Notes: generated by a model not told the origin, from the sequence alone. Positions 28,616-64,000 are shown, counted from the stretch's first letter. The stretch: DNA of 64,000 nucleotides from Balanoglossus misakiensis (GCA_040954595.2 CM082585.2:5171808-5235807), one strand, 5' to 3'. Translations and numbers: made by a program.

Positions 28616-28740
28616 GCATTTGCCAGAGTTGGCCAGCAAGACTATTCAAAGAACTAAATGTTTTACTTTTATTGACATTCTCTAGTCTCCTCTGGCATTG
28701 ATCTTTTCGAAATCTGGACATTTTATCCTCGGCAGACAGA

Positions 28741-36297: not shown

Positions 36298-36366
<69 letters not shown>
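36298..36366. repeat. (GATA)n microsatellite
   Basis: Directly visible. Confidence 0.97.
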
Positions 36367-36367
<1 letters not shown>

Positions 36368-37645
36368 GATAACAGTGCCTACGGCAGCTGGCAACCCACT
36401 ATTACGAGGCGAGAACTGTGACTAGCGCCACCAAGTGGCTGCAGGGGGATTGTGAGTGGAGTTAGGCAAATTCATCAGCACATGTATGTGGCTTCTTTGT
36501 TCGTTTGTTACACAAAAGACGAAATATTTAAAAGTATTAAACAAGAAATTTACATGCCCGCGATGCATGGTTATTAGTAAATATCTTTCTGGATCAACTT
36601 TACCACCATTGCAGCGTAAAAAGATATACAATGCATGGTTTGCTCGAGGAAATCCAGACCCTGGCATTCTCTCCGTGTCTGCTTGTATCAATCGACCTTC
36701 AATTCACCATGCGCAGTCGCAGACTGTGAGTGCGCCACCAAAGGATGAACTGACATCGCTTCGCAGCTTTCCTTGTGACAAATCCCAGCACGTACATAAA
36801 GCAATCTTTCGTTTCTTGGGAGGCCTCTTGAAATGCCAATAAATCATGCTGTTGTTGTTGTGCACGAGATAAAACCTTAGCGCAACCCTTTTGGTAGACA
36901 CTGATTAACATGGCAGTGTCGAAGGGAACCTGGTATTTGCCCTTCAATAAACACCCAGAAATTTTGTTCAGTTTTTCAGGGATTGAGCCGGATTTGAACC
37001 TGCATCTGAAGTTCAGGTCTACATCACTCGATTTCTGCGGCATACATCTGCTTCTCATTGACTCAATCCTTAACCCCAAGCCCCTGTGAATACTGTTAGG
37101 ACATTATGGCTTAGCAAGATTATCGGGTGAACAAAGAGAAACATGAACAGAAAGTGACAATAAAAAGTCTTTTAAAATAACAAGCGATTTTACTTGTTCA
37201 TAACAGGAAAATATCACATGTTGGACAAAATCTTTGCATCCGGCCAAATAAAATACAAAGAAGCTTCCCCGCACATTGGATGGATGTCGACAACATCACG
37301 CCTGTTGAGCGTGTTCTCCTAGTTGCATGCTACGCGGCTATTGGCTGCCGTGAATAATTATTTATAGTTCACGCCTTAGTTTTCAACCGGATTCTTCGCT
37401 TTTGTCAGCTCCTCTGCATGCAAATGAGAAAATGAAATGTTCACACCATATTTGGCCATCTGAAATCACGTAATTCTCAAAACACAACGTCTGGAAACTC
37501 CGAGGCTGACACCATTAACAGTTGGCGCCGACACACCACACAACCATGGATTGGTTGACGCCTTGACCTTGTCGTCTGCTCTTTTCCACTGGTTAGATTC
37601 AGAATTGGGGCGTGTTCAGTTCAGCAGCTTGACACGTCACCTCTG

Positions 37646-38196
37646 TCACTTCTTTTGTGCGTCTTCTGCAAAAAATAGAGAACTCGGGTGAACACCACGA
37701 TCCACGGTTAAACCATTAACATAGGGCCGCGTTCGACTGCCAAAATTGCTGATAAAATAGCAATACAGAGATACTGGGCAAATAACACCAACGGTCAAAC
37801 ATGCTTTGAGTTTTGTCTGTCACACGTTGTCCGTTCCCCAACACATCGGGCGGGGATGGTGGGGGAGGGGGGGTGGTAGTTGGCACGTTTCTTTCGATTC
37901 ACGACTCAAATGTCTCTGATAATGCCTACTACACACTAGGCAACTAAAGTGTTTCACGCGAGTGAGTTATAGCGTTAAAATACATGTATGTCCAATTAAC
38001 AAAGCTAAAAATAAGAGAACTTTACGGCACCTTTAGGCTTTCGTCTTTGTGGCTCGTTGGCATCCACGTCTGTGAGGGCGACGGCGGCTTGGAATTCTGG
38101 TGTGTTTTCGGGGTACATGTCTGTGTTTTCCCCTTCTTTGCGTTCAGGTGCACCGCCTGTCGGTTTATCGCCATTATCGTTTCCCTTTGAAGACAT
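37646..38196 (-). CDS. DxNE microprotein A (61 aa, unknown family)
   Basis: Exons 38196-38031 (phase-1 donor AAG|GTGCCG, weak) and 37665-37646 (acceptor ttttttgcag): MSSKGNDNGDKPTGGAPERKEGENTDMYPENTPEFQAAVALTDVDANEPQRRKPKEDAQKK*. TATA-like element at ~38236 and kB-like site at 38477-38486. Confidence 0.55.
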
Positions 38197-42013: not shown

Positions 42014-42739
42014 ATGAGTGATACAAATGAACCCAAGGAGGTAGCCATAACTGCAACCACTGCAACAACTACCAGCACCGAACCATCTACCGATTCCAAC
42101 GAACCACAGGGTAACCGTGACGTATTGAACATTCAGTTTTGCCATCCGTATTTATAGTTGTTAACCATTTTGAATGGTTTTCAAATACATGAACCATTTT
42201 GAGTGGTTTTAGAACACTTTAAGAAACAGTCACTTCTCTGATCCTACAACTTTGTCTTTAACAATTTGTTTGTCCCACAGGTCGAGATGGCAAATATAAA
42301 TTTGAAGTGTGTGAGGTCGGCTTGGTACCAAGTCAACTGCTTGGAACCGTTTTCGGTAAGGCAATTTCAAAGGAGAATGTTTAATGTCAGTAATGGATTT
42401 CATTTCTTTCCAAATGAAAAAATGGATAGGTCATTTTACTTACTAAATCTTATTATCAACTAATTATCACAAGTCCCAACCACCGTTTTTTTCTAATCCG
42501 TGACGAAAAGCCTGGTATTAACATGCTCCATATTCAAAATGTTGGCAGCAAGTTTAGCTCAAAATACTGGATTAAACCATTATACAACTTACGAATCTGT
42601 GTTGACCGTATTCCTATGGACAATATACTCCCAGAAATACACCATTCAAATTTCAGCATATTTATTTTCTTACTTTTTACAATTGTATTAATATCATGTC
42701 TCTCACTTTATCCAAGGCGGGGCACAGTTTAGGCGTTAA
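42014..42739 (+). CDS. DxNE microprotein B (64 aa)
   Basis: Exons 42014-42110, 42281-42355, 42717-42739, then a 3'-UTR intron from 42773 to ~43438: MSDTNEPKEVAITATTATTTSTEPSTDSNEPQGRDGKYKFEVCEVGLVPSQLLGTVFGGAQFRR*. TATA at ~41896 and CCAAT upstream. Confidence 0.7.
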
Positions 42740-44290
42740 AACAACGGGTAGAGTTCGTGCTGTTCCTACTAGGTAAGTTGAGCCTAACAATACATTATGT
42801 ATTACACGAAATAGGTAACTTATGTTGAAATGTTAATACGAGATTATACCATGGATACTTCATTTCATGTATGCCACAACGAGGCAAAAACAGAAACTGG
42901 AGATGCACAAACAAGAGTCAATGAGATATATTTACAATAACGTTTCGCGTCTGTGCACACACATGAGTTTTGTGGTTTTGTGACATGAAACGAAATTAAG
43001 TCCAAGCCATATATTCAAGATGACGGTTTCTCCTGATCTGTGAAAAATAGTCAATTTTTTCTCTCTGAATTTTCGCGCACTTTTTCGCATACTTTTCAAT
43101 TTGTATACACATACATATAATTGTGGCGAGGACAACTAGGGCATGTAAAGGTTGAAAGACGATATTAAAGGAAGGGAAGGGGGATGGGAACAGACAGAAA
43201 GAGAAAAACTAAGAATGAGTGATAGCCAGAAGGAGTGGGTGGATGGGGATGGAAAGAGGTTGGGGGGGGGGGGGTCATAACAGCGTATCATTCTTTATGT
43301 GTAAAGCAGTTGTGATATTTATAACAATGTTAATGTATATGTCTCTAGGAATTTGGTTGTCATAGATTCATAGATCTTGCTGTGATTTACCATTACTTTG
43401 TGTACAGTTAACTGAAGTTTGGAATTTTATTGTTGCAGATAACTGATCACCCACCAAATAGAACAGAAGATCTTGTCAACTGGTATAGAGGTCCATTCTG
43501 GATTTGTGATATTGCAATAAGAATGACAAGCTTTAAATCACTTACTGAAAAGCACTTGTTTAAGAAATATACACTTTTCACACGTACCAACATATTTTAG
43601 ATTTATGACCATGGAATTTTCCTACCTTGAATAAAACATAAATACATGTACTTTTAAGTTGTTTTTCTTTGCTTGCAAGTAATAAGAAAGTTAAAAAGTT
43701 ATTATCCACGAAAAGATGGCAGACTAAATGCAAAAGAATGTTGGTTAATGATTTACTGAGTTTTCTGACAGCGCCCATTGCTGTGCATATATAGAGTGAA
43801 TTGAGGTTTATCAAGGCACATTCAAGGAACAGCATTTCCTCTTACCAGCGGTTAAATGAAATGGGCCCCAGAACAAGCATTTTAACTGTCCATTGATATT
43901 CGCACACTCCAAATATGGAGAGAATCCCATAAGATAAGTAGCAAAAAAATCCTGATATGTAGATTTGTTGTTTGTTTACGCATTCAACTAGTATAATCAT
44001 ATTCCATAGCCAATAAAACACTGCATTATCCTCTGTTAAACCATGGCTTGCATAAATTAAAAGAGGGTCCCGGCCAATCACGACACAGTACATGTGGCAC
44101 TGACATAATATAATTGTATGTAAATTACAGTCATAAAAGTATCCAGGTATTGTCCAATCCGCTGAAATATTAAAATTGAGGAACTCCTACAAAAGATTTT
44201 GAAACTAATATAAGAGCAGTTTCCACAGCAAATTGCATCTCTCGGTGAAAAGACAAACTGAAGTTGTACAGCACATCGAAAGTAATCAGT

Positions 44291-44413
44291 ATGCCCGATA
44301 CGAATCAGCCACAAGGTACCAAGACCAGAATACCCACCACACCAAAGCCAAAGCCACCGGTCCAAGGTCCCAGCTCGAATACACCTTCCAACGAAGGTTC
44401 CAAAAGGAAGTAG
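44291..44413 (+). CDS. DxNE microprotein C (40 aa; 67 aa if the in-frame TAG is read through or is a recent nonsense change)
   Basis: TATAAGA at ~44210; MPDTNQPQGTKTRIPTTPKPKPPVQGPSSNTPSNEGSKRK*. The frame stays open to donor 44465 and into an exon starting at 44828. Confidence 0.55.
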   Translation: MPDTNQPQGTKTRIPTTPKPKPPVQGPSSNTPSNEGSKRK

Positions 44414-46747
44414 AGGGACTCGGAGAAGAAAAACGCTGCCAAACATGACAATGCAGACTCACAGGTTAGCGTGAAATAAGTTAACATTTCTTAAATGGAC
44501 AAACACCCTACCGTTTCCCCTCCTTTGTTATCTAACAAGTCTGATACTTCTCATGCTATAAGCACACGGGTTCAATTAATTAATCTTAAGTCAAGTTACC
44601 CTTGGTTTGGATTCAGAGACATATGAGTAAACTTTCATGTCATAAGTACAGAACTTGAGTTCTATACACCACCAACCTGTCACATTTCTCACAATTCCTT
44701 ATGCATAGTTTAAGTACCAAAACCTAGGTGTCCATGTAAAGGACCGGTATTCTTTATTTTATTATAGTATTTGGAACACCTTTGGCGGTAGCATACAACA
44801 CTATACGCAATTTTTGTGTATTCACAGCATACGGCATCAACATCAATAACGCAATAATAAATGAATGATTCTACAAGATGAAGAACAAGAAATTACAGTT
44901 ACTACTGCTTTGCAACTAACGCTGCGTTAACCTCTGCAACGTCTAAAACTGTGCACCATCTAAGCGGTAGACCCGGTGTGGTAACCAATGCGAAATGACG
45001 ACTGAATTATCAAGCTTCAGCGGTCAAGCTCCGACAAATCCAAGAAAAACTACCAAAGACAACCACATACAACTGGTGTACATCCGGCCAATTTCTTCAT
45101 GACCAATGACATTATACTTTCCAACCCTTCAAAGCTAATAACATAATATTCAATGTAAACCGATTACATGTATTTTAAAGATGATGTATCTCCAGCATAA
45201 TTCAATCGAGAAAGACATTGTCATACTTGAAGAACAGTTTAACGCGTTTTCATTTTCACTTTTAAGGCAGATCGCAACAGCTAAGCTTAGTCACTGTTTT
45301 GCCACAGTATAAATAAAGTTACCCGAGATATTGATGTTTGATCTTTATATTCACTAGTAGTTTTTTGCATTTTCATCCTTTATATGTATGCATGTAACAT
45401 GATTGTATTCTGTGATACATGTAGCATTCAGAACTTGTGACACTCGCGTGAATAAAGTTAATGCTGAACGATTTATGCCTCATGATTTCATTCACACTCG
45501 ATTTCGTCATTCGGATTGAAAGTATGCCAACAACATGCCATCCTTTTGTTGTCAAATGAGATTGTCCTGTAAATTTCATGTAACAATCGAGCATTCCTGT
45601 AGCCCAGATTGGCCCTGTCCTTACATCCCTAATACTCGGGAATATTTCTCAAACAAAACAAGTTGAAGACATAACCTACAATCTCCCTATTCCACAAAAT
45701 TTATGCTGAGAGACTAAGTATGCTCAGGTTGACAGGTTGTATTCATAGCATGATGAATGGACTCGTTTGACCTTTGGGGTCATGCAACTGAAAGACCTAA
45801 GTAACAAAGCTAGCCATTGGTTGAAAAGATTTATACTGACCTGAGTATGTTAAGTAGCAAAACGTCGATAAACCACTGGGTGCACTTTCGTTATGATAAT
45901 GCCCACCTTTTCACGTCAACCTGTTTGTCTTCCAAATATCACCAAATTGGTTTTTGTACTCTCAATAGAAAGGGAATTTCCGTTACACACAAAACAGAAT
46001 AGTTACATACGCACGAGGATGAAAACCTCAATTCTATGTACGGGGTCTCTCAGTGCAGATAAGTTGAGACGAAAGTCAATGTGATAGTTATTTATCTGTT
46101 TTGCCAAATGGTGTATAGACAAAATTAGTAAACGCTGAACAAGACGGCATGTGCATGTTTTCAAGAAAATAAAATAACGGGGACCTCACTTAAACATAAC
46201 TGTCCGAAGGAAATGTGCCAAAACAGCATGAGAAGGCAGTCACGTCATGATATCGCCCACCCAATCCCATTTGAATAAATGTCCTAAATTGTGACATTGT
46301 ATGCCCTGTTTTCTTTAAAAAGTGACAAAAACTTTTGAAGTGGACGGAATTTCAAATGAACAAAAAAAAGTCAATTATTCCCGATTGTGAATCGTGTTGT
46401 GAAATTGCTAAAGGTGGCATCATTTAATGGACAGGACTGCAAAAGGTATCTTAAAAATTGGAAAAAAATGTGACAGTAATAAAGCTCAGAGAGATTCAGT
46501 ATAGTCCTAATCAAAGATGTAATTTTAAAGCTTATGCATGATCGGAAACAGCATACTGAGAATCGTGTTACAACTTGGGATCACTGACCAATCGTGGAGG
46601 TAATGCATCAACCACGTGACAATTTTCATCATAATAAATTCAGAGCTGAGCTTGTGGCAGCCATTTTTATAAGAACTCTCTGGAACATCCGTCTCATTCG
46701 AAACCATCTTCTTCGTTGAATTTTATCGCGAAATATTAACTACAATT

Positions 46748-47594
46748 ATGGGAGGCTCTTCCAGTACAGACGGTAACGAGGGTTCCGGTTCAAAAGGTTC
46801 CAGTGGAAACGGCAATAGTGGTAGTTCGAATACAGATACGAACGAGAGGAAAGTTGAACTAGGTGTGTATTCTCAGATGACGAATTTCAAATTTATTTTC
46901 TCTCACTCAAAACACAGACACTTTTTAAATCATGATTTATAATTCGCTTGTAGGTAACATTTGGATCATGACACCTTGTACTTCCATGCGTTACTTTGAT
47001 CAAAAGAAAAAAAGTGAAAATTCGCCATGGTTTGCCGCCACGCCTGCCATAGCGTTAACACGCCCGTTAACGCGCACGTAGCTGTAGACACAATTTTCAT
47101 AGAAACGTTTGGTGCTAGCGGTGAAATGAAATGAGCTTCTAGACTTTAGTACGATCTACAGTGTTGATCAACATAACATTAAAAAACCTCTGGCGTTGCT
47201 TTTCTCCAGATGTACTAAGCAACAATCCCTGTCTCCGTCAGCGTCCTGCCGATGGTCTTTCTGTTTCTACACGTAAGTGTATCTATATTATATACATGTA
47301 CTAGAAGCGTACAAGCAGCTACGTTGAATAGGAACAAGCGTTTAGTACATTTTATCTCGTGTCGTTTTGTACCAAATGCCGTGCTATATGATATGTAGTC
47401 AATCAAGTTTAAGCAATTCGACAGTGGACACTATCAATTCTCTATTGGACTGACAAATACTATCACCAGGGTACGTGTACCTGCTCAACATATTCATTCC
47501 TTTTTGGATATGGTCCAAGAGTTATTTAAAAGGGGGTTCCCTTCAATGAAATGACAAATACTTTTAATTTTACACAGATGGTGGTCTGCGTTAG
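46748..47594 (+). CDS. DxNE microprotein D (64 aa, MGxxxS myristoylation start)
   Basis: Exons 46748-46862, 47210-47272, 47578-47594, 3'-UTR intron 47631-47864, AATAAA 48145: MGGSSSTDGNEGSGSKGSSGNGNSGSSNTDTNERKVELDVLSNNPCLRQRPADGLSVSTHGGLR*. TATAAGA at ~46668. Confidence 0.72.
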
Positions 47595-48864
47595 AAGGAT
47601 GACGCATCTGGACAGTATGGACAAATAGAGGTATGTATTCATTGGTCGATATTTTCATGGTAAATACCTGCGTTCTCTACTATTGGCGTTAAGGTCAAGT
47701 CATCCTTATGTAAATCGCATACCCAGAAGCTATTATAAAGGACTTCTACAAAGGTCACCAAAGGTCATCAATACCTGATTTAAGTTCTATAGCGAATGAG
47801 CTGGTGAAAGGACATTTTATAAAATAACTGTGACAGTTGATTTTTGTCGTTTTCGTTGCTGCAGGTTGATCTAAAGAAATGGCGTGGAAACGCTCAAGTA
47901 AAGTGAACGTGCAGCCATGGCATACTCATCATCTTCACTTAGAAACCATTTTTGTGATTTTCTTGAATTATAATTGTCGTTTATACCGTACTGTACCTGT
48001 ATGTTAACACATCTGTAATAATTATGTTACCATCAATGTGATGTAAAATTCGCTATTTTCTTTACTCTTCAGCTGCTGTGAATTTCACCTGTAAGAACAT
48101 GATTTTCTGCATTAGAGGTTGATGTGTTTAATACAATTGTATTCAATAAAATAACAGACATTCTTGAACCCGTCGTTATTTTCGTGTGTTTTTTTTATAC
48201 GAGCTGCCGTATGGCCACATTGCATTTGTTTTATTTTGGACCATGCTCGTTTAGATGCCCAACGTAAACACCTCGAGGACAGGTAAATACTTTGGGAAGT
48301 AAAAAAACTGTTTAGCTTAGAGACAACACAAACAGTACGTTGTCATTGGCTGCTGGCCAACAATTAGAGAGCTGGAACGACACAGACGGACATTAGTCTA
48401 ATTATGGAAATCAAAGTAATGCTCGTGATTTACACATGCGACATGAATACCCTTATAGTTTTGGTGGAAATCATACTTTGTTAGTTCTACAGACACAGCT
48501 CCGGCAGATAGGCACACATTTTCAACATCAGAAAAACAACAGTGGTACATTAAAATATTAGGGTAAAGAATTAATTGACATTATACAGTGATTTTCAATG
48601 GAATTGCAATTCTTAACCGGGTAAATGTCACATGATAGGGATTCTTGTGAATGACTCACGTAAACAAAACCATCGGTCATCACGACTAAAAAAAGAAAAT
48701 CGTATGACATCACAGACACAAAGAAAAGGATTGACCAATAGAAAGGGAGAACGCGGCAGGGCAGGTAAAAAGCACGACATCGACAAAAACTCTTGCAGGT
48801 AAACTTGCGAAGAACATTTTGGTAGATGACGAGCATCTGTGAGGAGCATCTGAAGTCAAAAAAG

Positions 48865-49567
48865 ATGGGTAATTGGTGCAGTGGTGGCGACGCCAACGAA
48901 GGTTGTCCACGAGGTTGCAAATACCAACCATCAAACACAGGTTCCTGCGTAGATTCTAATGAACCGAAGGGGACGTACACACGACCACCAAATTCAGGTT
49001 TGCAAAATGAATAACGTATATGATAGTTGTGACAGATGAGAAGACGACCATCACTTGAACGTATATTGCAAATAACTGAGTGTTCTGGTTCACAAGTAGT
49101 TTAACCTTCCATTGCGAGATTTTGTGGAGAACGATCAACGTTTAGCAGAAAAACTCAAAGTATATTTAAGTCTATCAAATAACACATAAAACTTTAAAAT
49201 GCTGGCGGGTGACATTTTTTCAGAACCAATAAATTCGACTGATCATAAATATACTAATACCAGGTGTTTCTTTTGTTCTTACAACACAATTTCTCATTTT
49301 TACAGAGCAAATAGATTTATCCTTGTACGATGGAGGGCTTTACGATAGTTCAGGTACGTAGGCAGCGTTTACTACGCACATAGTTTTAGGTTTGGTCAGA
49401 TGGTCTTACATCCAGGCTAGTTTTATGACATTTCCAATCATGGTAACATTTCTTAAGAAACAATCAAACCTTATGAAGTGACAGTTTCTCCATTTTCTTG
49501 CAAGTTTTTTGCAATGAGTAAAGTCTACAATTCTTCTTTGTTTGCAGGAAACTACTATCGCCGCTAG
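48865..49567 (+). CDS. DxNE microprotein E1 (66 aa, MGNWCS myristoyl/palmitoyl-type start)
   Basis: Exons 48865-48997, 49306-49353, 49548-49567: MGNWCSGGDANEGCPRGCKYQPSNTGSCVDSNEPKGTYTRPPNSEQIDLSLYDGGLYDSSGNYYRR*. Confidence 0.72.
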
Positions 49568-51548
49568 TGCTTCAGGTAACACAGGTAAGACAATAAAATT
49601 AAAATATAGATAATCCGTCAAATATTTGATTGGTGTGCAACCAACGATGTATTTAGTTGACATCAATGGTTCTTTTGTTTAAACTGTGATTCAAATTAAG
49701 ACGAGTTGGACAGTCTTTGGACAGTCAGTTACAATGACGAATTGGGGATTCCCCCTGCAGACGAATGACTATAATCTAAAAGTATATTAATCATTTTGGA
49801 ATAGTAATTTTGACTTTCGATGGGCTTTTAAATATATATACCATTTAACACTGTAATATCCAAATTTTGTTGTTGTTTTCATAGTGCTAGGAAGTTCTGT
49901 TTTTCCTTTGCTTTGGTGAGAAATACTGGTTTGGTCACAAATGCCATAATCTTTCTTACTGTGTGCTGTGATGCTCCATATTAGCTCAGAAATTCTTCTT
50001 CAGAAAATATTGCGTCCAATTCAAACAGAATAGCATGCACATGGATATTGTACACAAAATGGTGATTGGAAGCTCAGGCCAGTTCAGTGTCCAAGAATAA
50101 ATTGTCGTTTGTTTGATTTTTTTCACGTGGCCACCCGGCAGAAATTGGCTGATCTCACATTTCCACGCGTACGGTAGCGCTGCTTAAATTTGCATAGGAA
50201 ACCTATATTTTTTACTTTTGAAAACAATGTAGTTCAAGAAAAACGCCTTGACCCATATCCGTTGACACAGAGATGTAGTAAATATTTTGAGTAATTTGTA
50301 TTTCATAGAATACCACTGACTTTATATGTACATTTTCAGTTCTTATATACAGTGATTTTGTTTTGTACATTATATGAATGGTACTAAGGTTTCATTGTAC
50401 ATGTATTTCAAAGTTGACATGTAATATCTTTAGTGTGAAATAGTTCACAGGTTAGGTCTGACCATGATGAGTTGCCAATATAGACATTAGTTTTAGTCTT
50501 CCATGGTAACTGTACATTTTTAACTTAATCAATCTAATAAAATACACTAGTTGATAATACACACCTGAAGATGCGTGATCTTTTGTTAATTACATTCTTT
50601 GCAAATAGCTTCACACACAGTCCAGAAGGTTAACAAGAAAATTGATCTTTTGGCGCTACTAAATATGCACCCAAGACACATAATACATAATGGAATGACA
50701 TTTTTGGGATATCCACCTGATATAGACGTGTGCCATTTTCCCCACGAAAACGCAGACAACAGATTACCAGCGTGTATTCCAATGGTGAAGCGAAAGTGTG
50801 CCACGTGAACTATCTATACACACTACTAGCAGCTGATAACATTGCTGCAATTGTTTTTCAAAATACAATGGCAACAAAATCTGTCGTGTGTGCATGGTGT
50901 GAATCTGAGGCGATTAAAGAGAAAAATTTAGCTGCCAACTCGGTGTCTTTGGCCAATAGTACTATTGGCACCATGAGAAAGTGTGCGCATTGAGTCGATA
51001 TTACTTGAGAACATCGAACACTTAATTACTAAATTGTAGACAAATTTAGCAAATTATACACAGCTGACCTTTGACCGAGAAACTCATTCCGTAAAGGTCA
51101 TGCGCAGAAATTCAAAGGGCATATATAGGTTTAGCTTAAACAACATTTAGAGCTTTAAATATACCATTACACTAAAATCTTATAAACATTCAGAACTTGT
51201 TAAAAAGAATCACATAACCAAGAAATATTTAAATCAATATTTAAGTCAAGCGCCTTCAATTGTTACAAGAACGAATATTCATTGCAAGCTCGTTCCATAT
51301 ATGATTAAGTTGATGCTTCGTATGTGATACTGATGTATCATATTTGTTCTAGTTGCAAACGTCTTTAGTGGACGAATTCCCTGTCTACTTGTGTTTATAT
51401 TATTTTCAATATAAGTCAACATAATTTTTTTCAACCATAACATACATTTTTTGTTAATAATGTTTAATATTAAATTAAATGAGGCCAGAAGCCGTCATTA
51501 AGTCGTCGGGTGTTTTCAAAAGATATATTGGTGATTTCATGACTTGTT

Positions 51549-51674
51549 GGGGAATTCCAGAAATTGGCCAATGGCAATGACACACGCGCGCCGCTTCTAA
51601 GACCAATAGCAAAAATCTACGTGTTGCTCCACACTGACACACGAGATCTTGCGCAATTCCAATACTATAAATAT
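51549..51674 (+). promoter_or_regulatory. kB-like site GGGGAATTCC, CCAAT boxes and TATAAAT upstream of gene F1
   Basis: GGGGAATTCC 51549-51558, several CCAAT, TATAAATA at ~51666, about 100 nt before the ATG. Conserved in copy 2. Confidence 0.6.
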
Positions 51675-51767
51675 CGAACAAGCGTTTTGTAGAAAGTAGT
51701 TTGGTGACCACATCATCCACGACATTTGCAGAAATCTGTTTTTCCTCTCGCAAAAAAATCAAAAACC

Positions 51768-52287
51768 ATGGGCAACCAAAGCAGCAACGAGCCTCGACCA
51801 AGAACTAGCAATTCAGGCTACTACTCAACCAGAGGTTATTCGTATCCGAATGTCAGTTCTAACGAACCGAAGAAAGGTATGTCAAATTTCCGTTGAAATT
51901 ATCTTTGCCTTTTGCGCCAGTGTTACAGCGAACTCGATTCCCACGAAAAGTAAGTTCCATAACCATTTGCAAAAACCCAATCAGCCAATGCATTTTCTGA
52001 CCAACTTTTTTTTCAAATCTTATTAACAACAACTTTTTTTCTGTGTTTTTCTCAAGCTGTGCGCAAACGTCGTTACGAACCTGAAGGTGGGCATTGCGGC
52101 GACGCAGACTGTCTTGAAAGAGGTAAGTATTTAAATAAATATCACGCAGTTTTCCAAAAGAAAAGAAAATATCACGAGAAATTACCAATGTGTTTCATAC
52201 GATTCCTATCTCCTCATGGACCTCATTTTCTGTCAATGTTCTCACTGTTTACAATTTTCTTCTACAGGATTTGTTCATAACCGTTAA
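51768..52287 (+). CDS. DxNE microprotein F1 (64 aa, MGxxxS start)
   Basis: Exons 51768-51876, 52057-52122, 52268-52287, then a 3'-UTR intron to ~52721: MGNQSSNEPRPRTSNSGYYSTRGYSYPNVSSNEPKKAVRKRRYEPEGGHCGDADCLERGFVHNR*. Strong Kozak context accATGG. Confidence 0.75.
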
Positions 52288-53484
52288 CACATTTGGACAG
52301 GTACGTCCACGTCCTACTTTTGGCCGGTGAGTACATCAGATTACCTCATTGTTTACAGTGCACTACTTCTAAAACAACCTCCTTGATGTCTTCTCTGAAG
52401 GGAATACTCACTGTGTATCATGTCCATGCCCAAGTGGTACTACATGTATTTAAAGTCCGTATAGCTTGTTGCCAAAGCAAAATAGAGTACCGCCTTTAAT
52501 ACTGTCATGATATTATCCGGGGTCAATATTCATGTTACCTTGTGTTGCAAATACAATGCTCTGACAAAAGGCACTCGGGTCTAGCACATTCCAGCTCAGC
52601 TAAACCCTGAGGTTTTGTTGATTTATTTATAGCAGAGAGTCACACGAGAACAGATCAGAATTTTTCGTTGTGGCACTGTTAGATTTGCTCTTGCACTTAC
52701 TGTATTTCGATTCATTTACAGATTACCATATAAATTCTGAAACCGGCAAATACCTCCTCAAGCCTTCACCATCGTCTACAGTGCACAACATCATGTTTCA
52801 AGGACAAGTACTCCGTCCCAGGGAAAATCCAAGTCGTTTTAGCAAGGACGCAGAGAAACTTGTTGCAATAACCATCTTTAGTACTGTTGACATTGTCATT
52901 AATTATGTTACGTTACCATGACACCGTTGTCCAAACACTGTAATTCAACACAATGATTATTGTTTAACCACAAACACCCGATCTGTATCATTCACTGTCT
53001 ACGTCAGTACCGTGTGATACCCGCTTTTAAATATCACAGTTTTCACAGTTTAACATTAAATTACACTAATATTATTTTTTAGGCTGTGTCAATCAAGTTT
53101 TATAGTAATGTCTATACATGTTGTCAGGTCATTCTTTTACTGCCAGAGTTTTAATTGTTCACTTTCATTCCTTTGTCGCAATGTAAAATTAATTCGGTAA
53201 GGTTTTATACTAGTGTGCATGGATTTTTCACTTTTTCAAAATGAACAAAGGTCAATTCTCCCAAGGAAGTTACTCATAGTTCTTTATATGCAATACAAAT
53301 GTGTTCAATTACATGGAATGTATCCTGTTTGATTATAGTTTATCACAGTAGTATAGTGTAGGTCAATTTGCCTTACTTTTGGATGTGCAGGTAATCTGAA
53401 GTTCTGTTATTAAAATATTAATATATTGACTCGATATGTCCATTAGTTTGTATGTATGGGTGAAACACCGTAACGTTAGTAGCA

Positions 53485-53651
53485 TGACTCATTTTGACCG
53501 AGATTGGTTGGTTAACGATGATTGATAGACGAAACAGTTTTTTTTTTTTCATAAACGTTCTCACAAAAACACTGTGCATGAATCAGCTAATTCTTGTGGA
53601 AATCCCCTCATCTATTATGCACTGGAATTTACCGACCAGTAGCATGACTCA
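53485..53651 (+). promoter_or_regulatory. AP-1 (TGACTCA x2) plus kB-like (GGAAATCCCC) module upstream of gene G1
   Basis: TGACTCA 53485-53491 and 53645-53651; GGAAATCCCC 53598-53607. Confidence 0.5.
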
Positions 53652-54098
53652 CTGTTGGCGTTGATTGGCTGATCGTCCTGAATGACCGGGAGTATCTTTT
53701 AAGAATACACAAACCCTAACACACACACAAACAAACAAACAAACAAACACTTTTCAATTTACTTTTTTTCCGATGCAACGGACGACAAAAAGGATGATGA
53801 CATCGCTGGACAGAACATGAGAAAATAACCACTGAAATGCTAATACGGTTGTGCCCAGAACCTTATTGGTCGTAATTTTATTCTATCAGCCAACCAAAAA
53901 ACAACACCAGATCCCATTGGTCACAACTAAATAATAGCATTCCTCCAAAATCACACATATACAATTTTAACTTCAGGGTGCGTAGTTGTCTACCTTGAGC
54001 ACATTCAAAATCAAGACTGTCAAGTATTGGCCCAAAAGCAAATTCATCGAGTTGAACGTCTGTTGTTTTATCACCTGTACAACTTACTATTGCTCATC

Positions 54099-54404
54099 AT
54101 GTCAGCTACAGAAACTGGACTAAGACACCCACACAATGGCGTGGAAATACACTATGACGAGAGATGCGAATATATTATTTTGAGACGAAGGTCGCAATAC
54201 GACCAAGAAGACCGCCAGTATCAAGTGAAGGTAATCCAACGACATTGCTACTGTCCAAACCCCAAGCCGAGGGTGGAAACACATCGAAATCATTGGTGTG
54301 CCTACAGGCAAACCCGCCATCGTTACTCTTACAAACTGGTTCGAAGTTGTGTGTGTGGACAATTCTACTCTCCTAATCCAAACATTGATGTAAACGAGCT
54401 GTAA
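54099..54404 (+). CDS. Cys/His-rich microprotein G1 (101 aa), two internal repeats, C-terminal DVNEL
   Basis: Single-exon ORF MSATETGLRHPHNGVEIHYDERCEY...RHCYCPNPKPRVETHRNHWCAY...RSCVCGQFYSPNPNIDVNEL*. The frame is kept in copy 2, including a 3-nt indel. Confidence 0.72.
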   Translation: MSATETGLRHPHNGVEIHYDERCEYIILRRRSQYDQEDRQYQVKVIQRHCYCPNPKPRVETHRNHWCAYRQTRHRYSYKLVRSCVCGQFYSPNPNIDVNEL

Positions 54405-55491
54405 ATCACGGGTGGTGACGTTAAGGACAGGTCCCGAGAAACAAAAACTTTACAGCTGTGACGTGGTGGAGAAAAGCGTCAAAGAGCTCGCATTGGCCTA
54501 ACTGGAACGAGTGACGTCTCTGAACAACATGCGTTGGAAGATTACACAGCGACATTGAATCAAGTCACCTATGGACATGTACTTCTACACGGGACATAAT
54601 TTTCCTCATCATCAACATTCGTCGGTGAAAGATTGGCTACTGACTGATTTAATCCACACATAGCAAAATGTGTGCACCATCTAAAAAGGCAACGTTTAAA
54701 AATATCGGACACGGTAAATTCACATAAAGTTTCATTTCGCAACAGGTTTTGAACAACATGTTTTGTATTTTATTTTAGTAGTGACTTCATTCTTGAACCC
54801 GTCGTTATTTTCGTGTGTTTTTTATACGAGCTGCCGTATGGCCACATTGCATTTGTTTTATTTTGAACCATGCTCGTTTAGATGCCCAACGTAAACACCT
54901 CGAGGACAGGTAAATACTTTGGGAAGTAAAAAAACTGTTTAGCTTAGAGACAACACAAACAGTACGTTGTCATTGGCTGCTGGCCAACAATTAGAGAGCT
55001 GGAACGACACAGACGGACATTAGTCTAATTATGGAAATCAAAGTAATGCTCGTGATTTACACATGCGACATGAATACCCTTATAGTTTTGGTGGAAATCA
55101 TACTTTGTTCGTTCTACAGACACAGCTCCGGGATATAGGCACACATTTTCAACATCAGAAAAACAACAGTGGTACATTAAAATATTAGGGTAAAGAATTA
55201 ATTGACATTATACAGTGATTTTCAATGGAATTGCAATTCTTAACCGGGTAAATGTCACATGATACGGATTCTTGTGAATGACTCACGTAAACAAAACCAT
55301 CGGTCATCACGACTAAAAAAGAAAATCGTATGACATCACAGACACAAAGAAAAGGATTGACCAATAGAAAGGGAGAACGCGGCAGGGCAGGTAAAAAGCA
55401 CGACATCGACAAAAACTCTTGCAGGTAAACTTGCGAAGAACATTTTGGTAGCTGACGAGCATCTGTGAGGAGCATCTGAAGTCAAAAAAAG

Positions 55492-56193
55492 ATGGGTAAT
55501 TGGTGCAGTGGTGGCGACGCCAACGAAGGTTGTCCACGAGGTTGCAAATACCAACCATCAAACATAGGTTCCTGCGTAGATTCTAATGAACCGAAGGGGA
55601 CGTACACACGACCACCAAATTCAGGTTTGCAAAATGAATAACGTATATGATAGTTGTGACAGATGAGAAGACGACCATCACTTGAACGTATATTGCAAAT
55701 AACTGAGTGTTCTGGTTCACAAGTAGTTTAACCTTCCATTGCGAGATTTTGTGGAGAACGATCAACGTTTAGCAGAAAAACTCAAAGTATATTTAAGTCT
55801 ATCAAATAACACATAAAACTTTAAAATGCTGGCGGGTGACATTTTTTCAGAACCAATAAATTCGACTGATCATAAATATACTAATACCAGGTGTTTCTTT
55901 TGTTCTTACAACACAATTTCTCATTTTACAGCGCAAATAGATTTATCCTTGTACGATGGAGGGCTTTACGATAGTTCAGGTACGTAGGCAGCGTTTACTA
56001 CGCACATAGTTTTAGGTTTGGTCAGATGGTCTTACATCCAGGCTAGTTTTATGACATTTCCAATCATGGTAACATTTCTTAAGAAACAATCAACCCTTAT
56101 GAAGTGACAGTTTCTCCATTTTCTTGCAAGTTTTTTGCAATGAGTAAAGTCTACAATTCTTCTTTGTTTGCAGGAAACTACTATCGCCGCTAG
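55492..56193 (+). CDS. DxNE microprotein E2 (66 aa)
   Basis: Exons 55492-55624, 55932-55979, 56174-56193; differs from E1 by T25I and E45A. Confidence 0.72.
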
Positions 56194-58773
56194 TGCTTCA
56201 GGTAACACAGGTAAGACAATAAAATTAAAATATAGATAATCCGTCAAATATTTGATTGGTGTGCAACCAACGATGTATTTAGTTGACATCAATGGTTCTT
56301 TTGTTTAAACTGTGATTCAAATTAAGACGAGTTGGACAGTCTTGTGACGTGAGCACACAAGTTGGAAGTTGACGTCTTTGATAGGGAGCGGCTGTGTGGA
56401 ATTTCAAAAGTGAAAGTGACTTCACTCTAATGTCGTCTGATAAAAAATGGCAAAAACAACTGACAGAGCATGCGTGGACAAGAAAACAGGCGGGGCTGGG
56501 AGGTCAGATGATCGATCATTATAACGTCTATGTGAACGACTGAAGGTTTATTACAATAGAGTAATTTTATGACAAACAGCACACTAATTACTTTATTTTC
56601 ACGTTATTTACTTTCAGGCGTTTCGATTTACCCGAAACTTGTGACAGAGTCTACATTGTTTTAAGACCATATAAGGAGATGGTTACCATATAAGGAGATG
56701 GTGACAAAGCAGAAATCATTGGAATTCAGTTACAATGACGAATTGGGGATTCCCCCTGCAGACGAATGACTATAATCTAAAAGTATATTAATCATTTTGG
56801 AATAGTAATTTTGACTTTCGATGGGCTTTTAAATATATATACCATTTAACACTGTAATATCCAAATTTTGTTTTTGTTTTCATAATGCTAGGAAGTTCTG
56901 TTTTTCCTTTGCTTTGGTGAGAAATACTGGTTTGGTCACAAATGCCATAATCTTTCAATTTCTTACTGTGTGCTGTGATGCTCCATATTAGCTCAGAAAT
57001 TCTTCTTCAGAAAATATTGCGTCCAATTCAAACAGAATAGCATGCACATGGATATTGTACACAAAATGGTGATTGGAAGCTCAGGCCAGTTCAGTGTCCA
57101 AGAATAAATCGTCGTTTGTTTGATTTTTTTCACGTGGCCACCCGGCAGAAATTGGCTGATCTCACATTTCCACGCGTACGGTAGCTCTGCTTAAATTTGC
57201 ATAGGAAACCTATATTTTTTACTTTTGAAAGCAATGTAGTTCAAGAAAAACGCCTTGACCCATATCCGTTGACACAGAGATGTAGTAAATATTTTGAGTA
57301 ATTTGTATTTCATAGAATACCACTGACTTTATATGTACATTTTCAGTTCTTATATACAGTGATTTTGTTTTGCACATTATATGAATGGTACTAAGGTTTC
57401 ATTGTAAATGTATTTCAAAGTTGACATGTATTATCTTTAGTGTGAAATAGTTCACAGGTTAGGTCTGACCATGATGAGTTGCCAATATAGACATTAGTTT
57501 TAGTCTTCCATGGTAACTGTAAATTTTTAACTTAATCAATCTAATAAAATACACTAGTTGATAATACACACCTGAAGATGCGTGATCTTTTGTTAATTAC
57601 ATTCTTTGCAAATAGCCTCACACACAGTCCAGAAGGTTAACAAGAAAATTGATCTTTTGGCGCTACTAAATATGCACCCAAGACACATAATACATAATGG
57701 AATGACATTTTTGGGATATCCACCTGATATAGACGTGTGCCATTTTCCCCACGAAAACGCAGACAACAGATTACCTGCGTGTATTCCAATGGCGAAGCGA
57801 AAGTGTGCCACGTGAACTATCTATACACACTACTAGCAGCTGATAACATTGCTGCAATTGTTTTTCAAAATACAATGGCAACAAAATCTGTCGTGTGTGC
57901 ATGGTGTGAATCTGAGGCGATTAAAGAGAAAAATTTAGCTGCCAACTCGGTGTCTTTGGCCAATAGTACTATTGGCACTATGAGAAAGTGTGTGCATTGA
58001 GTCGATATTACTTGAGAACATCGAACACTTAATTACTAAATTGTAGACAAATTTAGCAAATTCTACACAGCTGACCTTTGACCGAGAAACACATTCCGTA
58101 AAGGTCATGCGCAGCAATTCAAAGGGCATATAAAGTTTAGCTTAAACAACATTTAGAGCTTTAGATATACCATTACACTAAAATCTTATAAACATTCAGA
58201 ACTTGTTAAAAAGAATCACATAACCAAGAAATATTTAAATCAATATTTAAGTCAAGCGCCTTCAATTGTTACAAGAACGAATATTCATTGCAAGCTCGTT
58301 CCATATATGATTAAGTTGATGCTTCGTATGTGATACTGATGTATCATATTTGTTCTAGTTGCCAGCGTCTTTAGTGGACGAATTCCCTGTCAACTTGTGT
58401 TTATATTATTTTCAATATAAGTCAACACAACTTTTTTCAACCATTACATACATTTTTTGTTAATAATGTTTAATATTAAATTAAATGAGGCCAGAAGCCG
58501 TCATTAAGTCGTCGGGTGTTTTCAAAAGATATATTGGTGATTTCATGACTTGTTGGGGAATTCCAGAAATTGGCCAATGGCAATGACACACGCGCGCCGC
58601 TTCTAAGACCAATAGCAAAATTCTACGTGTTGCTCCACACTGACACACGAGATCTTGCGCAATTCCAATACTATAAATATCGAACGAGCGTTTTGTAGAA
58701 AGTAGTTTGGTGACCACATCATCCACGACATTTGCAGAAATCTTTTTTTTTCCTCTGGCAAAAATCGAAAACC

Positions 58774-59295
58774 ATGGGCAACCAAAGCAGCAACGAGCCG
58801 CGACCAAGAACTAGCAATTCAGGCTACTACTCAACCAGAGGTTATTCGTATCCCAATGTCAGTTCTAACGAACCAAAGAAAGGTATGTCAAATTTCTCAT
58901 GAAATTGTCTTTGCCTTTTGCGCCAGTGTTACAGCGAACTCGATTCCCACGAAAAATAAGTTCCATAATCATTTGCAAAAAAACAATCATGCAGCCAATG
59001 GATTTTCTGACCGATTATTTTCCAAATCTTTTAACAACAACTTTTTTTCTGTGTTTTTTTCAAGCTGTGCGCAAACGTCGTTACGAACCTGAAGGTGGGC
59101 ATTGCGGCGACGCAGACAGTCTTGAAAGAGGTAAGCATCTAAACAAATATCACGCAGTTTTCCAAAAGAAAAGAAAATATTACGAGAAATTACCAATGTG
59201 TTTCATACGATTCCTATCTCCTCATGGAACTCATTTTCTGTCAATGTTCTCACTGTTTACAATTTTGTCCCACAGGATTTGTTCATAACCGTTAA
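58774..59295 (+). CDS. DxNE microprotein F2 (64 aa)
   Basis: Exons 58774-58882, 59065-59130, 59276-59295; three synonymous Pro-codon changes and one Cys>Ser change versus F1. Confidence 0.75.
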
Positions 59296-61061
59296 CACAT
59301 TTGGACAGGAATGCCCACGTCCTACTTTTGGCCGGTGAGTACATCAGATTACCTCATTGTTTACTGTTCACTACTTTTAAAACAACCGCCTTGATGTCTT
59401 CTCTGAAAAGAATATTCACTGTGTATCATGTCCACGCCCAAGTGGTACTACATGTATGTAAAGTCCATACAGCTTGTTGCCAAAGCAAAATAGAATACCG
59501 CCTTACTGTCATGATAGTATACGGGGTCAACATTCATGTTATCTTGTGTTGCAAATACAATGCTCTGACAAAAGACACTCGGGTCTAGCACATTCCAGCT
59601 CAGCTAAACCCTGAGGTTTTGTTGATTTATTTATAGCAGAGAGTCACACGAGAACAGATCAGAATTTTTCGTTGTGGCACTGTTAGATTTGCTCTTGCAC
59701 TTACTGTATTTCGATTCATTTACAGATTACCATATAAATTCTGAAACCGGCAAATACCTCCTCAAGCCTTCACCATCGTCTACAGTGCACAACATCATGT
59801 TTCAAGGACAAGTACTCCGTCCCAGAGAAAATCCAAGTCGTTTTAGCAAGGACGCAGAGAAACTTGTTTCAATCACCATCTTTAGTACTGTTGACATTGT
59901 CATTAATTATGTTACGTTACCATGACACTGTAATTCAACACAATGCTTATTGTTTAACCACAAACACCCGATCTGTCTACGTCAGCACCGTGTGATACCC
60001 GCTTTTAAATATCACAGTTTTCACAGTTTAACATTAAATTACACTAATATTATTTTTGAGGCTGTGTCAATCAAATTTTATATTAATGTCTATACATGTT
60101 GCCAGGTCATTCTTTTACTGCCAGAGTTTTAATTGTTCACTTTCATTCCTTTGTCGCAATGTAAAATTAATTCGGTAAGGTTTTATACTAGTGTGCATGG
60201 ATTTTTCACTTTTTCAAAATGAACAAAGGTCAATTCTCCCAAGGAAGTTACTCATAGTTCTTTATATGCAATACAAATGTGTTCAATTACATGGAATGTA
60301 TCCTGTTTGATTATAGTTTATCACAGCAGTATAGTGTAGGTCAATTTGCCTTACTTTTGGATGTGCAGGTAATCTTAAGTTCTGTTATTAAAATATTAAT
60401 ATATTGACTCGATATGTCCATTAGTTTGTATGTATGGGTGAAACACCGTCACGTTAGTAGCATGACTGATTTTGACCGAGATTGGTTGGTTAACGATAAT
60501 TGATAGACGAAACAGTTTTTTTTTTTCAAAAACGTTCTCACAAAAACACAGTGAATGAATCAGCTAATTCTTGTGGAAATCCCCTCATCTATTATGCAAT
60601 GGAATTTACCGACCAGTAGCATGACTCACTGTTGGCGTTGATTGGCTGATCGTCCTGAATGACCGGGAGTATCTTTTAAGAATACCTTAACACACACACA
60701 AACAAACAAACACTTTTCAATTTACTTTTTTCCGATGCAACGGACGACAAAAAGGATGATGACATCGCTGGACAGAACATTGAGAAAATAACCACTGAAA
60801 TGCTAATACGGTTGTGCCCCGAACCTTATTGGTCTTAATTTTATACTATCAGCCAACCAAAAATCAACACCAGATCCCATTGGTCACAACTGAATAATAG
60901 CATTCCTCCAAAATCACACATATAAAATTTTAACGTCAGGGTGCGTAGTTGTCTACCTTGAGTACATTCAAAATCAAGACTGCCAAGTATTGGCCCGCAA
61001 GTCAATTCATCGAGTTGAACGTTTGCTGCTTAATCTCCTGTACAGCTTACAATTGTTCATA

Positions 61062-61370
61062 ATGTCAGCAACAGAAACTGGACTAAGACACCCACATAAT
61101 GGCGTGGAAATACACTATGACGAGAGATGCGAATATATTATTTTGAGACGATGGTCGCAATACGTCCAAGAAGACCGCCAGTATCGAGTGAAGGTAATCC
61201 AACGACATTGCTACTGTCCAGACCCCAAGCCGATGAGGGTGGAAACACATCGAAATCATTGGTGTGCCTACAGGCAAACCCGCCATCGTTACTCTTACAA
61301 ACTGGTTCGAAGTTGTGTGTGTGGACAATTCTACTCTCCTAATCCAAACATTGATGTAAACGAGCTGTAA
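61062..61370 (+). CDS. Cys/His-rich microprotein G2 (102 aa)
   Basis: Paralog of G1. All Cys/His and DVNEL are kept, with an in-frame Met insertion; TATAAAA at ~60921. Confidence 0.72.
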   Translation: MSATETGLRHPHNGVEIHYDERCEYIILRRWSQYVQEDRQYRVKVIQRHCYCPDPKPMRVETHRNHWCAYRQTRHRYSYKLVRSCVCGQFYSPNPNIDVNEL

Positions 61371-61753
61371 ATCACGGGTGGTGACGTTAAGGACAGGTCC
61401 CGAGAAACAAAAACTTTACAGCTGTGACGTGGTGGAGAAAAGCGTCAAAGAGCTCGCATTGGCCTAACTGGAACGAGTGACGTCTCTGAACAACATGCGT
61501 TGGAAGATTACACAGCGACATTGAATCAAGTCACCTATGGACATGTACTTCTACACGGGACATAATTTTCCTCATCATCAACATTCGTCGGTGAAAGATT
61601 GGCTACTGACTGATTTAATCCACACATAGCAAAATGTGTGCACCATCTAAAAAGGCAACGTTTAAAAATATCGGACACGGTAAATTCACATAAAGTTTCA
61701 TTTCGCAACAGGTTTTGAACAACATGTTTTGTATTTTATTTTAGTAGTGACTT

Positions 61754-64000
61754 CATTCTTGAACCCGTCGTTATTTTCGTGTGTTTTTTATACGAGCTGC
61801 CGTATGGCCACATTGCATTTGTTTTATTTTGGACCATGCTCGTTTAGATGCCCAACGTAAACACCTCGAGGACAGGTAAATACTTTGGGAAGTAAAAAAA
61901 CTGTTTTGCTTAGAGACAACACAAACAGTACGTTGTCATTGGCTGCTGGCCAACAATTAGAGAGCTGGAACGACACAGACGGACATTAGTCTAATTATGG
62001 AAATCAAAGTAATGCTCGTGATTTACACATGCGACATGAATACCTTATAGTTTTGGTGGAAATCATACTTTGTTCGTTCTACAGACACAGCTCCGGGATA
62101 TAGGCACACATTTTCAACATCAGAAAAACAACAGTGGTACATTAAAATATTAGGGTAAAGAATTAATTGACATTATACAGTGATTTTCAATGGAATTGCA
62201 ATTCTTAACCGGGTAAATGTCACATGATACGGATTCTTGTGAATGACTCACGTAAACAAAACCATCGGTCATCACGACTAAAAAAGAAAATCGTATGACA
62301 TCACAGACACAAAGAAAAGGATTGACCAATAGAAAGGGAGAACGCGGCAGGGCAGGTAAAAAGCACGACATCGACAAAAACTCTTGCAGGTAAACTTGCG
62401 AAGAACATTTTGGTAGCTGACGAGCATCTGTGAGGAGCATCTGAAGTCAAAAAAAGATGGGTAATTGGTGCAGTGGTGGCGACGCCAACGAAGGTAGTCC
62501 ACGAGGTCGCAAATACCAACCATCAAACACAGGTTCCAGCGCAGATTATAATGAACCGAGGAGGACGTACACACGACCACCAAATTCAGGTTTGCAAAAT
62601 GAATAACGTATAGGATAGTTGTGACAGATGAGAAGACGACCATCACTTGAACGTATATTGCAAATAACTGAGTGTTCTGGTTCACAAGTAGTTTAACCTT
62701 CCATTGCGAGATTTTGTGGAGAACGATCAACGTTTAGCAGAAAAACTCAAAGTATATTTAAGTCTATCAAATAACACATAAAACTTTAAAATGCTGGCGG
62801 GTGACATTTTTTCAGAACCAATAAATTCGACTGATCATAAATATACTAATACCAGGTGTTTCTTTTGTTCTTACAACACAATTTCTCATTTTTACAGAGC
62901 AAATAGATTTATCCTTGTACGATGGAGGGCTTTACGATAGTTCAGGTACGTAGACAGCGTTTACTACGCACATAGTTTTAGGTTTGGTCAGATGGTCTTA
63001 CATCCAGGCTAGTTTTATGACATTTCCAATCATGGTAACATTTCTTAAGAAGCAATCAAACCTTATGAAGTGACAGTTTCTCCATTTTCTTGCAAGTTTT
63101 TTGCAATGAGTAAAGTCTACAATTCTTCTTTGTTTGCAGGAAACTACTATCGCCGCTAGTGCTTCAGGTAACACAGGTAAGACAATAAAATTAAAATATA
63201 GATAATCCGTCAAATATTTGATTAGTGTGCAACCAACGATGTATTTAGTTGACATCAATGGTTCTTTTGTTTAAACTGTGATTCAAATTAAGACGAGTTG
63301 GACAGTCTTGTGACGTGAGCACACAAGTTGGAAGTTGACGTCTTTGATAGGGAGCGGCTGTGTGGAATTTCAAAAGTGAAAGTGACTTCACTCTAATGTC
63401 GTCTGATAAAAAATGGCAAAAACAACTGACAGAGCATGCGTGGACAAGAAAACAGGCGGGGCTGGGAGGTCAGATGATCGATCATTATAACGTCTATGTG
63501 AACGACTGAAGGTTTATTACAATAGAGTAATTTTATGACAAACAGCACACTAATTACTTTATTTTCACGTTATTTACTTTCAGGCGTTTCGATTTACCCG
63601 AAACTTGTGACAGAGTCTACATTGTTTTAAGACCATATAAGGAGATTGTTACCATATAAGGAGATGGTGACAAAGCAGAAATCATTGGAATTCAGTTACA
63701 ATGACGAATTGGGGATTCCCCCTGCAGACGAATGACTATAATCTAAAAGTATATTAATCATTTTGGAATAGTAATTTTGACTTTCGATGGGCTTTTAAAT
63801 ATATATACCATTTAACACTGTAATATCCAAATTTTGTTTTTGTTTTCATAGTGCTAGGAAGTTCTGTTTTTCCTTTGCTTTGGTGAGAAATACTGGTTTG
63901 GTCACAATCGCCATAATCTTTCAATTTCTTACTGTGTGCTGTGATGCTCCATATTAGCTCAGAAATTCTTCTTCAGAAAATATTGCGTCCAATTCAAACA
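61754..64000 (+). repeat. Tandem segmental repeat, copy 3 (truncated by window end; gene E3)
   Basis: Same start sequence; colinear with copy 2 to the end of the window. Confidence 0.95.
62457..63159 (+). CDS. DxNE microprotein E3 (66 aa, Cys-poor variant)
   Basis: Exons 62457-62589, 62898-62945, 63140-63159: MGNWCSGGDANEGSPRGRKYQPSNTGSSADYNEPRRTYTRPPNSEQIDLSLYDGGLYDSSGNYYRR*. Confidence 0.72.

Follow-up and report, generated by a model that had tools for sequence, protein, structure and literature searches.

Within a 64,000-nucleotide (nt) stretch of the Balanoglossus misakiensis genome (GCA_040954595.2 CM082585.2:5171808-5235807; one strand, 5′ to 3′, positions counted from its first letter), hereafter the window, we analyzed an array of at least nine small predicted genes spanning 37.6–64 kilobases (kb). 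The array comprises six paralogs, termed A to F, together with recent copies of two of them, termed E′, E″ and F′ (Table 1). According to an original prediction made from the sequence alone, the encoded proteins are held at about 64 residues and carry their second motif near residue 32 despite differing exon sizes. The gene models used here are the hand-made exons of that prediction, which we rebuilt from their coordinates only, and all junctions are predicted. Gene A is located on the minus strand, while genes B to F follow on the plus strand with a spacing of 2.1–2.9 kb. Genes E and F belong to a repeat unit of 6.6–7.0 kb, which is present in at least 2.3 tandem copies with 96–99% identity, and the array continues past the end of the window. 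The GC content of the window is approximately 0.34–0.50, in keeping with an animal genome.

Table 1 Predicted genes and associated features of the array. Exons are listed in coding order, and the first coordinate of each of the genes A to F is its ATG.
Feature	Coordinates	Strand	Description
Gene A	38196-38031 (166 nt, donor GTGCCG); 37665-37646 (20 nt including TGA)	-	186 nt, 61 residues
Gene B	42014-42110; 42281-42355; 42717-42739	+	97+75+23 = 195 nt, 64 residues; exon 3 extends to 42772, then GTAAGT
Gene C	44291..44413	+	unspliced open reading frame, 40 codons; in-frame stop
Gene D	46748-46862; 47210-47272; 47578-47594	+	115+63+17 = 195 nt, 64 residues; exon 3 extends to 47630, then GTATGT
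Gene E	48865-48997; 49306-49353; 49548-49567	+	133+48+20 = 201 nt, 66 residues; exon 3 extends to 49584, then GTAAGA
Gene F	51768-51876; 52057-52122; 52268-52287	+	109+66+20 = 195 nt, 64 residues; exon 3 extends to 52300, then GTACGT
E′	55492-55624; 55932-55979; 56174-56193	+	201 nt; recent copy of E
F′	58774-58882; 59065-59130; 59276-59295	+	195 nt; recent copy of F
E″	62457-62589; 62898-62945; 63140-63159	+	201 nt; recent copy of E
E+F tandem repeat	48159..64000	+	units begin at 48159, 54788 and 61754; third truncated by the window end
CCAAT boxes	~41855, 44154, 46588, 48735, 51603	+	upstream of B, C, D, E and F, respectively
Stop-bearing short exon of A	37641-37665	-	
Stop-bearing short exons of B, D, E and F	42717-42772; 47578-47630; 49548-49584; 52268-52300	+	

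Genes B, D, E and F were modelled with three coding exons each, where every junction is GT..AG, both introns are in phase 1 and the length of exon 2 is divisible by three in all four genes. Gene A has no middle exon, and shares with the other four a common plan of phase-1 introns and a last coding piece of 17–23 nt. In all five genes the stop codon is located in a very short exon, 5–36 nt upstream of a further GT donor (5 nt past the stop in gene A), which implies an intron of the 3′ untranslated region (3′UTR) directly behind the stop. These stop-to-intron distances are within the range usually held to escape nonsense-mediated decay.

To rank the splice sites, we used a crude consensus score, which gives rough support only, together with a frame-blind search for acceptor–donor pairs. 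The donor chosen for exon 1 was the best or joint-best GT inside the unspliced open reading frame (ORF) for five out of the six genes, with gene C as the exception. Exons 2 and 3 of genes D, E and F as well as exon 3 of gene B ranked among the top candidates of the frame-blind score. Likewise, the splice sites are preserved in the copies E′, E″ and F′.

The predicted proteins share a recurring motif, D-[S/T/A/G]-N-E-[P/G]-[K/Q], with two instances in each of B to F and a single one in A. Gene A carries DANEPQ (Asn47) as its single motif, gene B DTNEPK and DSNEPQ (Asn5 and Asn29), gene C DTNQPQ and PSNEGS (Asn5 and Asn34), gene D DGNEGS and DTNERK (Asn10 and Asn32), gene E DANEGC and DSNEPK (Asn11 and Asn32), and gene F SSNEPR and SSNEPK (Asn7 and Asn32). 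The resulting Asn-to-Asn distances are 24, 29, 22, 21 and 25 residues for B to F, respectively. Proteins D, E and F start with Met-Gly, E additionally having a cysteine at position 5, whereas Gly2 is absent from A, B and C. The PROSITE-type pattern for myristoylation is M-G-{EDRKHPFYW}-x-x-[STAGCN]-{P}. By regular expression, this pattern is matched by D, E, F, E′, E″ and F′ and not by A, B and C, so that it is a trait of half the family and not of the whole. The carboxy-terminus is basic: B and E end in Arg-Arg, D in Leu-Arg and F in Asn-Arg, whereas A ends in Lys-Lys. All predicted proteins are hydrophilic, with a grand average of hydropathy of −0.6 to −1.7, and consist of disorder-promoting residues to 74–93%; based on this composition they are likely to be disordered.

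Several features of the DNA argue for a coding function. Over the 11 motif instances, the asparagine is encoded by AAT (three times) and AAC (eight times), the following glutamate by GAA (six times) and GAG (four times) with CAG occurring once in its place, and the motif proline by all four of its codons. The paralogs of the array can no longer be aligned as DNA, yet their motif codons vary synonymously. Reading frames are intact in eight of the nine gene copies. Comparison of F with F′ yielded four coding differences, three of them synonymous and all three in proline codons (P = 0.034 for a synonymous fraction of 0.217), and the coding divergence of 4/195 is lower than the 21/323 found in the two introns of F (P = 0.02). 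Furthermore, we found a forward CCAAT box 130–165 nt upstream of the ATG in 5/5 plus-strand genes, where the chance expectation is 0.046 per gene for an interval chosen post hoc. Its similar offset in B to F suggests separate promoters of one type; besides CCAAT, no promoter words shared between the regions upstream of the genes were found. Together, these features indirectly support the view that the A–F family, for which no relatives were detected, likely represents real genes for small motif-bearing proteins.

The recent copies report on change over a shorter timescale. They are 96–99% identical to their source units and thus do not constitute independent data, and none of the coding copies E′, E″ and F′ contains an insertion or deletion (indel). 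E′ differs from E by two changes, both nonsynonymous, whereas for F′ the three synonymous changes against one nonsynonymous change indicate that the sequence of F itself is conserved. E″ exhibits seven differences in exon 1 (codons 14–36), all of them nonsynonymous, leaving the Asn-Glu-Pro motif and the length unchanged and replacing three of four cysteines (codons 14, 18 and 28). This accumulation stands out against 16/1664 changes in the flanking non-coding DNA (P = 0.0009), and the neighbouring introns differ from E at 1/308 and 2/194 sites. Among E, E′ and E″ in total, 0/9 changes are synonymous, which on its own is not significant (P = 0.11). The E″ spacer thus possibly underwent fast, perhaps adaptive, change, or its differences may stem from gene conversion by an unseen paralog. 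F′ likewise lacks one cysteine of F (codon 55), and the F half of the repeat unit (~96% identity) is more diverged than its E half (~99%).

We next turned to the coincidence of lengths and motif positions. Recomputed exon sums confirmed 195 nt and 64 residues for B, D and F, 201 nt and 66 residues for E and 61 residues for A, and the translations agree with a second-motif asparagine at residue 32 in D, E and F, at 29 in B and at 34 in C. The proposed constancy did not prove general: the only motif of A is at Asn47, and for C no model of about 64 residues was obtained. Exon sizes indeed offset one another in the five genes as modelled: while the size of exon 1 lies anywhere between 97 and 166 nt, exons 1 and 2 together span 166–181 nt and the totals 186–201 nt. 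When the sizes of exons 2 and 3 were shuffled among B, D, E and F, totals as tight were obtained in 6/576 permutations and at least three equal totals in 8/576, and the sizes of exons 1 and 2 correlate with r = −0.998, a closer relation than in any other of the 24 pairings. Likewise, shuffling the first-motif offsets (5, 5, 10, 11 and 7) against the spacers gave an equally tight arrangement in 6/120 cases and three equal values in 2/120. These permutation figures are uncorrected for a pattern that was picked after being seen, and the sample consists of four or five independent paralogs. The coincidence is suggestive in statistical terms, at about the 1–5% level without correction.

How unusual such tightness is depends on the number of indels, which we addressed by simulation on a star tree of five paralogs, with indels of a mean of 2.5 residues and random sign. 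A range of at most five residues was retained in 44%, 17%, 8%, 3% and 1% of the runs at 1, 2, 3, 5 and 8 events per lineage, respectively. An E–F protein alignment read by hand suggests about three indels past the second motif (+9, −2 and −5), amounting to a net change of +2, which makes about 1.5–3 indels per lineage a fair guess. At this rate the length coincidence is suggestive, not compelling. The paralogous proteins are diverged, with pairwise global z-scores of 0.5–4.5.

We read the locus as small genes of four exons, arranged in tandem and predicted to encode proteins of 61–66 residues, whose similarity in length is most probably due to common descent with a mild constraint at most, and assign a probability of about 0.5 to this reading. 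The differences in exon size would have arisen through shifted splice sites and small indels, with the coding region staying near 64 codons. The common Asn32 of D, E and F, which all start with Met-Gly, may more simply reflect inheritance of residues 1–32 without indels, where the short first Asn-Glu motif would have turned over in place within an Asn/Ser/Gly-rich stretch. As for function, the A–F proteins would be small docking ligands with the Asn-Glu-Pro motifs, which are separated by 21–25 residues in B, D, E and F, serving as short linear motifs for a single partner that could be two-site or dimeric. Membrane attachment of D, E and F would be through myristate, with the carboxy-terminal arginine as a possible third motif, perhaps an Arg/C-degron.

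A number of results weigh against this reading. Word-index homology searches retrieved no relative for full-length F, and with the aligned exon-1 peptides of all six genes they gave 4 candidates at near lengths and 2173 candidates at longer lengths, none of which scored; a metagenome locus scan with the gene A exon gave none either. A codon-usage score, for which 1967 codons from the neighbouring large ORFs served as training set, did not distinguish D, E and F from random stop-free segments; gene A alone exceeded the 95th percentile of the latter, with gene B near it. Moreover, the coding divergence between F and F′ of 4/195 is not below the intergenic background of 60/2349 (P = 0.8). With the crude site score, no three-coding-exon model of about 64 residues with usable sites was found for gene C, whose donor at 44396/44397 (GTTCCA) is weak; this gene may therefore have decayed or follow a different plan. 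For gene B, exon 2 scores level with two other candidates, and five AG sites in 42356-43600 each yield a 23-nt ending and a total of 195 nt. Partner binding, lipidation and the degron, finally, are inferred roles.

The original prediction had gone further, proposing selection on total length and on the distance of the motif from an often lipidated amino-terminus, in the manner of a molecular ruler. A true ruler, or conformational buffering, in which selection holds the length and the motif distance, the spacer drifts and exon changes offset each other, is suggestive but in our assessment unlikely. The offsetting exon sizes, the rarity of equally tight permutations and the nearly cancelling indels between E and F all speak for it, as does the burst in E″, where seven nonsynonymous changes and no synonymous one left length and motif in place. 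Lengths as tight as these would indeed be rare with 5–8 free indels per lineage (1–3% of simulations), but with 1–3 indels they appear in 8–44%, and the pattern, chosen post hoc, comes from four or five independent paralogs. Anchoring at the amino-terminus is contradicted by the motif of A at residue 47 and the missing Gly2 of B and C, A, B and C all being devoid of a lipidation start, and the motif-to-motif distance itself varies between 21 and 29 residues. The notion that selection disregards the spacer sequence fits E″, which acquired its seven changes without an indel, but not F, whose sequence is conserved.

The concept itself is established for adenovirus E1A, a two-motif disordered tether in which changes in linker length and sequence compensate for one another so that the linker dimensions stay conserved, termed conformational buffering (10.1101/2021.05.14.444182). 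Similar to E1A, the array proteins combine two short motifs with a fast-changing hydrophilic spacer, their length seems to be more conserved than their sequence, and a change in one segment is balanced elsewhere. Unlike E1A, they show motif-to-motif distances of 21–29 residues with a single motif in A, comprise four or five paralogs of one genome instead of many orthologues, and are known from sequence alone. The resemblance is one of behaviour only and implies neither homology nor membership.

We also consider it rather unlikely that the coincidence is an artefact of the hand-made models, with other splicing or no transcription at some of the loci and lengths that follow from a free choice of GT and AG sites. 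This explanation would account for the five equivalent endings and the tied exon 2 of gene B, where a strong acceptor at 43439 additionally yields a protein of 59 residues if exon 3 is skipped, for a candidate 29-nt exon within intron 1 of gene F, for the missing model of gene C and for the uninformative codon usage of D, E and F. Since the same reader chose the models, the coincidence of lengths lends them no independent support, contrary to what had been put forward. The selected sites nevertheless ranked at or near the top of a score that is blind to frame, and the same plan of phase 1-1 introns, short stop-bearing exon and 3′UTR intron recurs in five diverged genes. E′, E″ and F′ retain the splice sites, and the differences between F and F′ are mostly synonymous in the frame of the models, both arguing against an artefact.

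A more elaborate proposal combines these elements into lineage-restricted, tiny disordered proteins that are partly lipid-anchored and act as bivalent ligands. Indels and splice-site shifts in different exons would compensate for one another and so hold the two docking motifs and the carboxy-terminal arginine in register, amounting to conformational buffering through gene structure. In this proposal the spacer would undergo arms-race-like diversification, of which the seven amino-acid changes in E″ would be the trace; we regard the combination as speculative and improbable. Least probable of all, the array would not encode functional proteins but young, decaying or non-coding transcripts with the motif as a relic of duplicated DNA, for which the absence of homologues in the libraries searched, the decayed appearance of C and the nonsynonymous nature of 9/9 differences among E, E′ and E″ could be cited, against the synonymous variation at conserved motif residues across paralogs unalignable as DNA, the intact frames of 8/9 copies, the purifying pattern of F and F′ and the conserved CCAAT position.

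Returning to the reading of an array of real genes with lengths set largely by descent, the predicted proteins can be compared with several known systems. Small N-myristoylated disordered membrane proteins include those with BASP1/MARCKS-type amino-termini and SH4-type Met-Gly-Cys starts. Proteins D, E and F resemble these by their Met-Gly start with Ser6 and by their hydrophilic, low-complexity composition, and Cys5 of E would be a possible palmitoylation site. The array proteins differ from these examples in that A, B and C lack Gly2, that they are far shorter and that no Pfam similarity was found, and we know of no Asn-Glu-Pro motif in BASP1/MARCKS/SH4-type proteins. A carboxy-terminal arginine is recognised by FEM1-type (CRL2-FEM1) ligases (PMC10026218). 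B, D, E and F would match such Arg/C-degron substrates by their last residue, although a carboxy-terminal arginine alone is weak evidence, and A differs with its Lys-Lys end. With lineage-restricted orphan tandem families of small proteins, the array finally shares its very recent duplication, the failure to detect relatives and the rapid change of one copy or more; such families are a descriptive class, not a family, and imply no mechanism.

Profile and structure searches were consistent with the lack of detectable relatives. Pfam matched 0/6 exon-1 peptides, the ESM Atlas gave no usable match for exon 1 of gene E, the best E-value of a PDB profile search was 0.64, and no Rfam family reached its gathering score over the whole window. 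An exhaustive HMMER search, performed with the 55-residue exon of gene A only, yielded one match with an E-value of 1.5e-05 to a 3385-residue repeat protein (P0007), in which Pfam detected nothing. The segment 38047-38106 (minus strand) of gene A shares 11/20 residues with a repeat unit of which this protein contains four or more copies, and the glutamate of the motif is not matched. We judged the match a repeat-inflated short similarity, since its E-value rests on four near-identical stretches. P0007 is presumably AHNAK-like; we rejected an AHNAK-like identity for the array proteins, where A matches a single 20-residue stretch and long repeat arrays are absent.

Further candidate identities for the motif were set aside. 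The phrase "NEP motif" led to glycosidase papers only, among the matches listed; the glycoside hydrolase clan with a catalytic NEP was rejected, as it needs a TIM-barrel of several hundred residues while the array proteins have 61–66. Viral and cellular 2A-like skipping peptides follow D-[VI]-E-x-N-P-G-P, and this identity was likewise rejected, with Asn-Pro-Gly-Pro in 0/11 motifs and the asparagine followed by Glu in ten and Gln in one. Caspase sites were dropped, the aspartate two positions before the asparagine being present in 8/11 motifs but neither in F nor in the second motif of C. EH-domain NPF, TRAF and KEN-type motifs and FIH-type asparagine hydroxylation were dropped for a misfit of the pattern or as being beyond testing.

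If the constancy of length held in orthologues, the array would provide a compact case of selection acting on the dimensions of disordered proteins and not on their sequence, visible as compensating exon sizes and easily tested in proteins of only about 64 residues. Its more modest value lies in at least nine small genes that cannot be annotated by homology, with a clear motif, an unusual conserved gene plan and one copy showing a burst of amino-acid change. The evidence justifies a check by complementary DNA (cDNA) and a peptide pull-down, and not the claim of a ruler.

The repeat units harbour further features. The later E+F copies contain an additional ~370 nt at 56343-56716, compared with position 49717. 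An intronless open frame of 157–158 codons is present within the E/F unit at 53931-54404 and 60894-61370 (plus strand), comprising about 100 Cys/His/Arg-rich residues from its methionine; in Pfam it matches DUF6174 alone, with E-values of 0.43 and 0.012 that do not reach the cutoff. The intergenic and intron sequences of the array include a (GATA)n microsatellite at 36296-36368 and a G-run at 43260-43275.

Large ORFs of the window match DUF229, a sulfotransferase, a nucleotide-sugar transporter and a DED + NB-ARC + TPR protein in Pfam. By comparison with the ESM Atlas, the sulfotransferase groups with carbohydrate sulfotransferases of animals. A few kilobases separate the array from the DED-NB-ARC-TPR gene (28702-32315, plus strand; ~6 kb from gene A), which combines a death effector domain (DED), the start of an NB-ARC/STAND NTPase and TPRs in an NLR-like, immune-type architecture.

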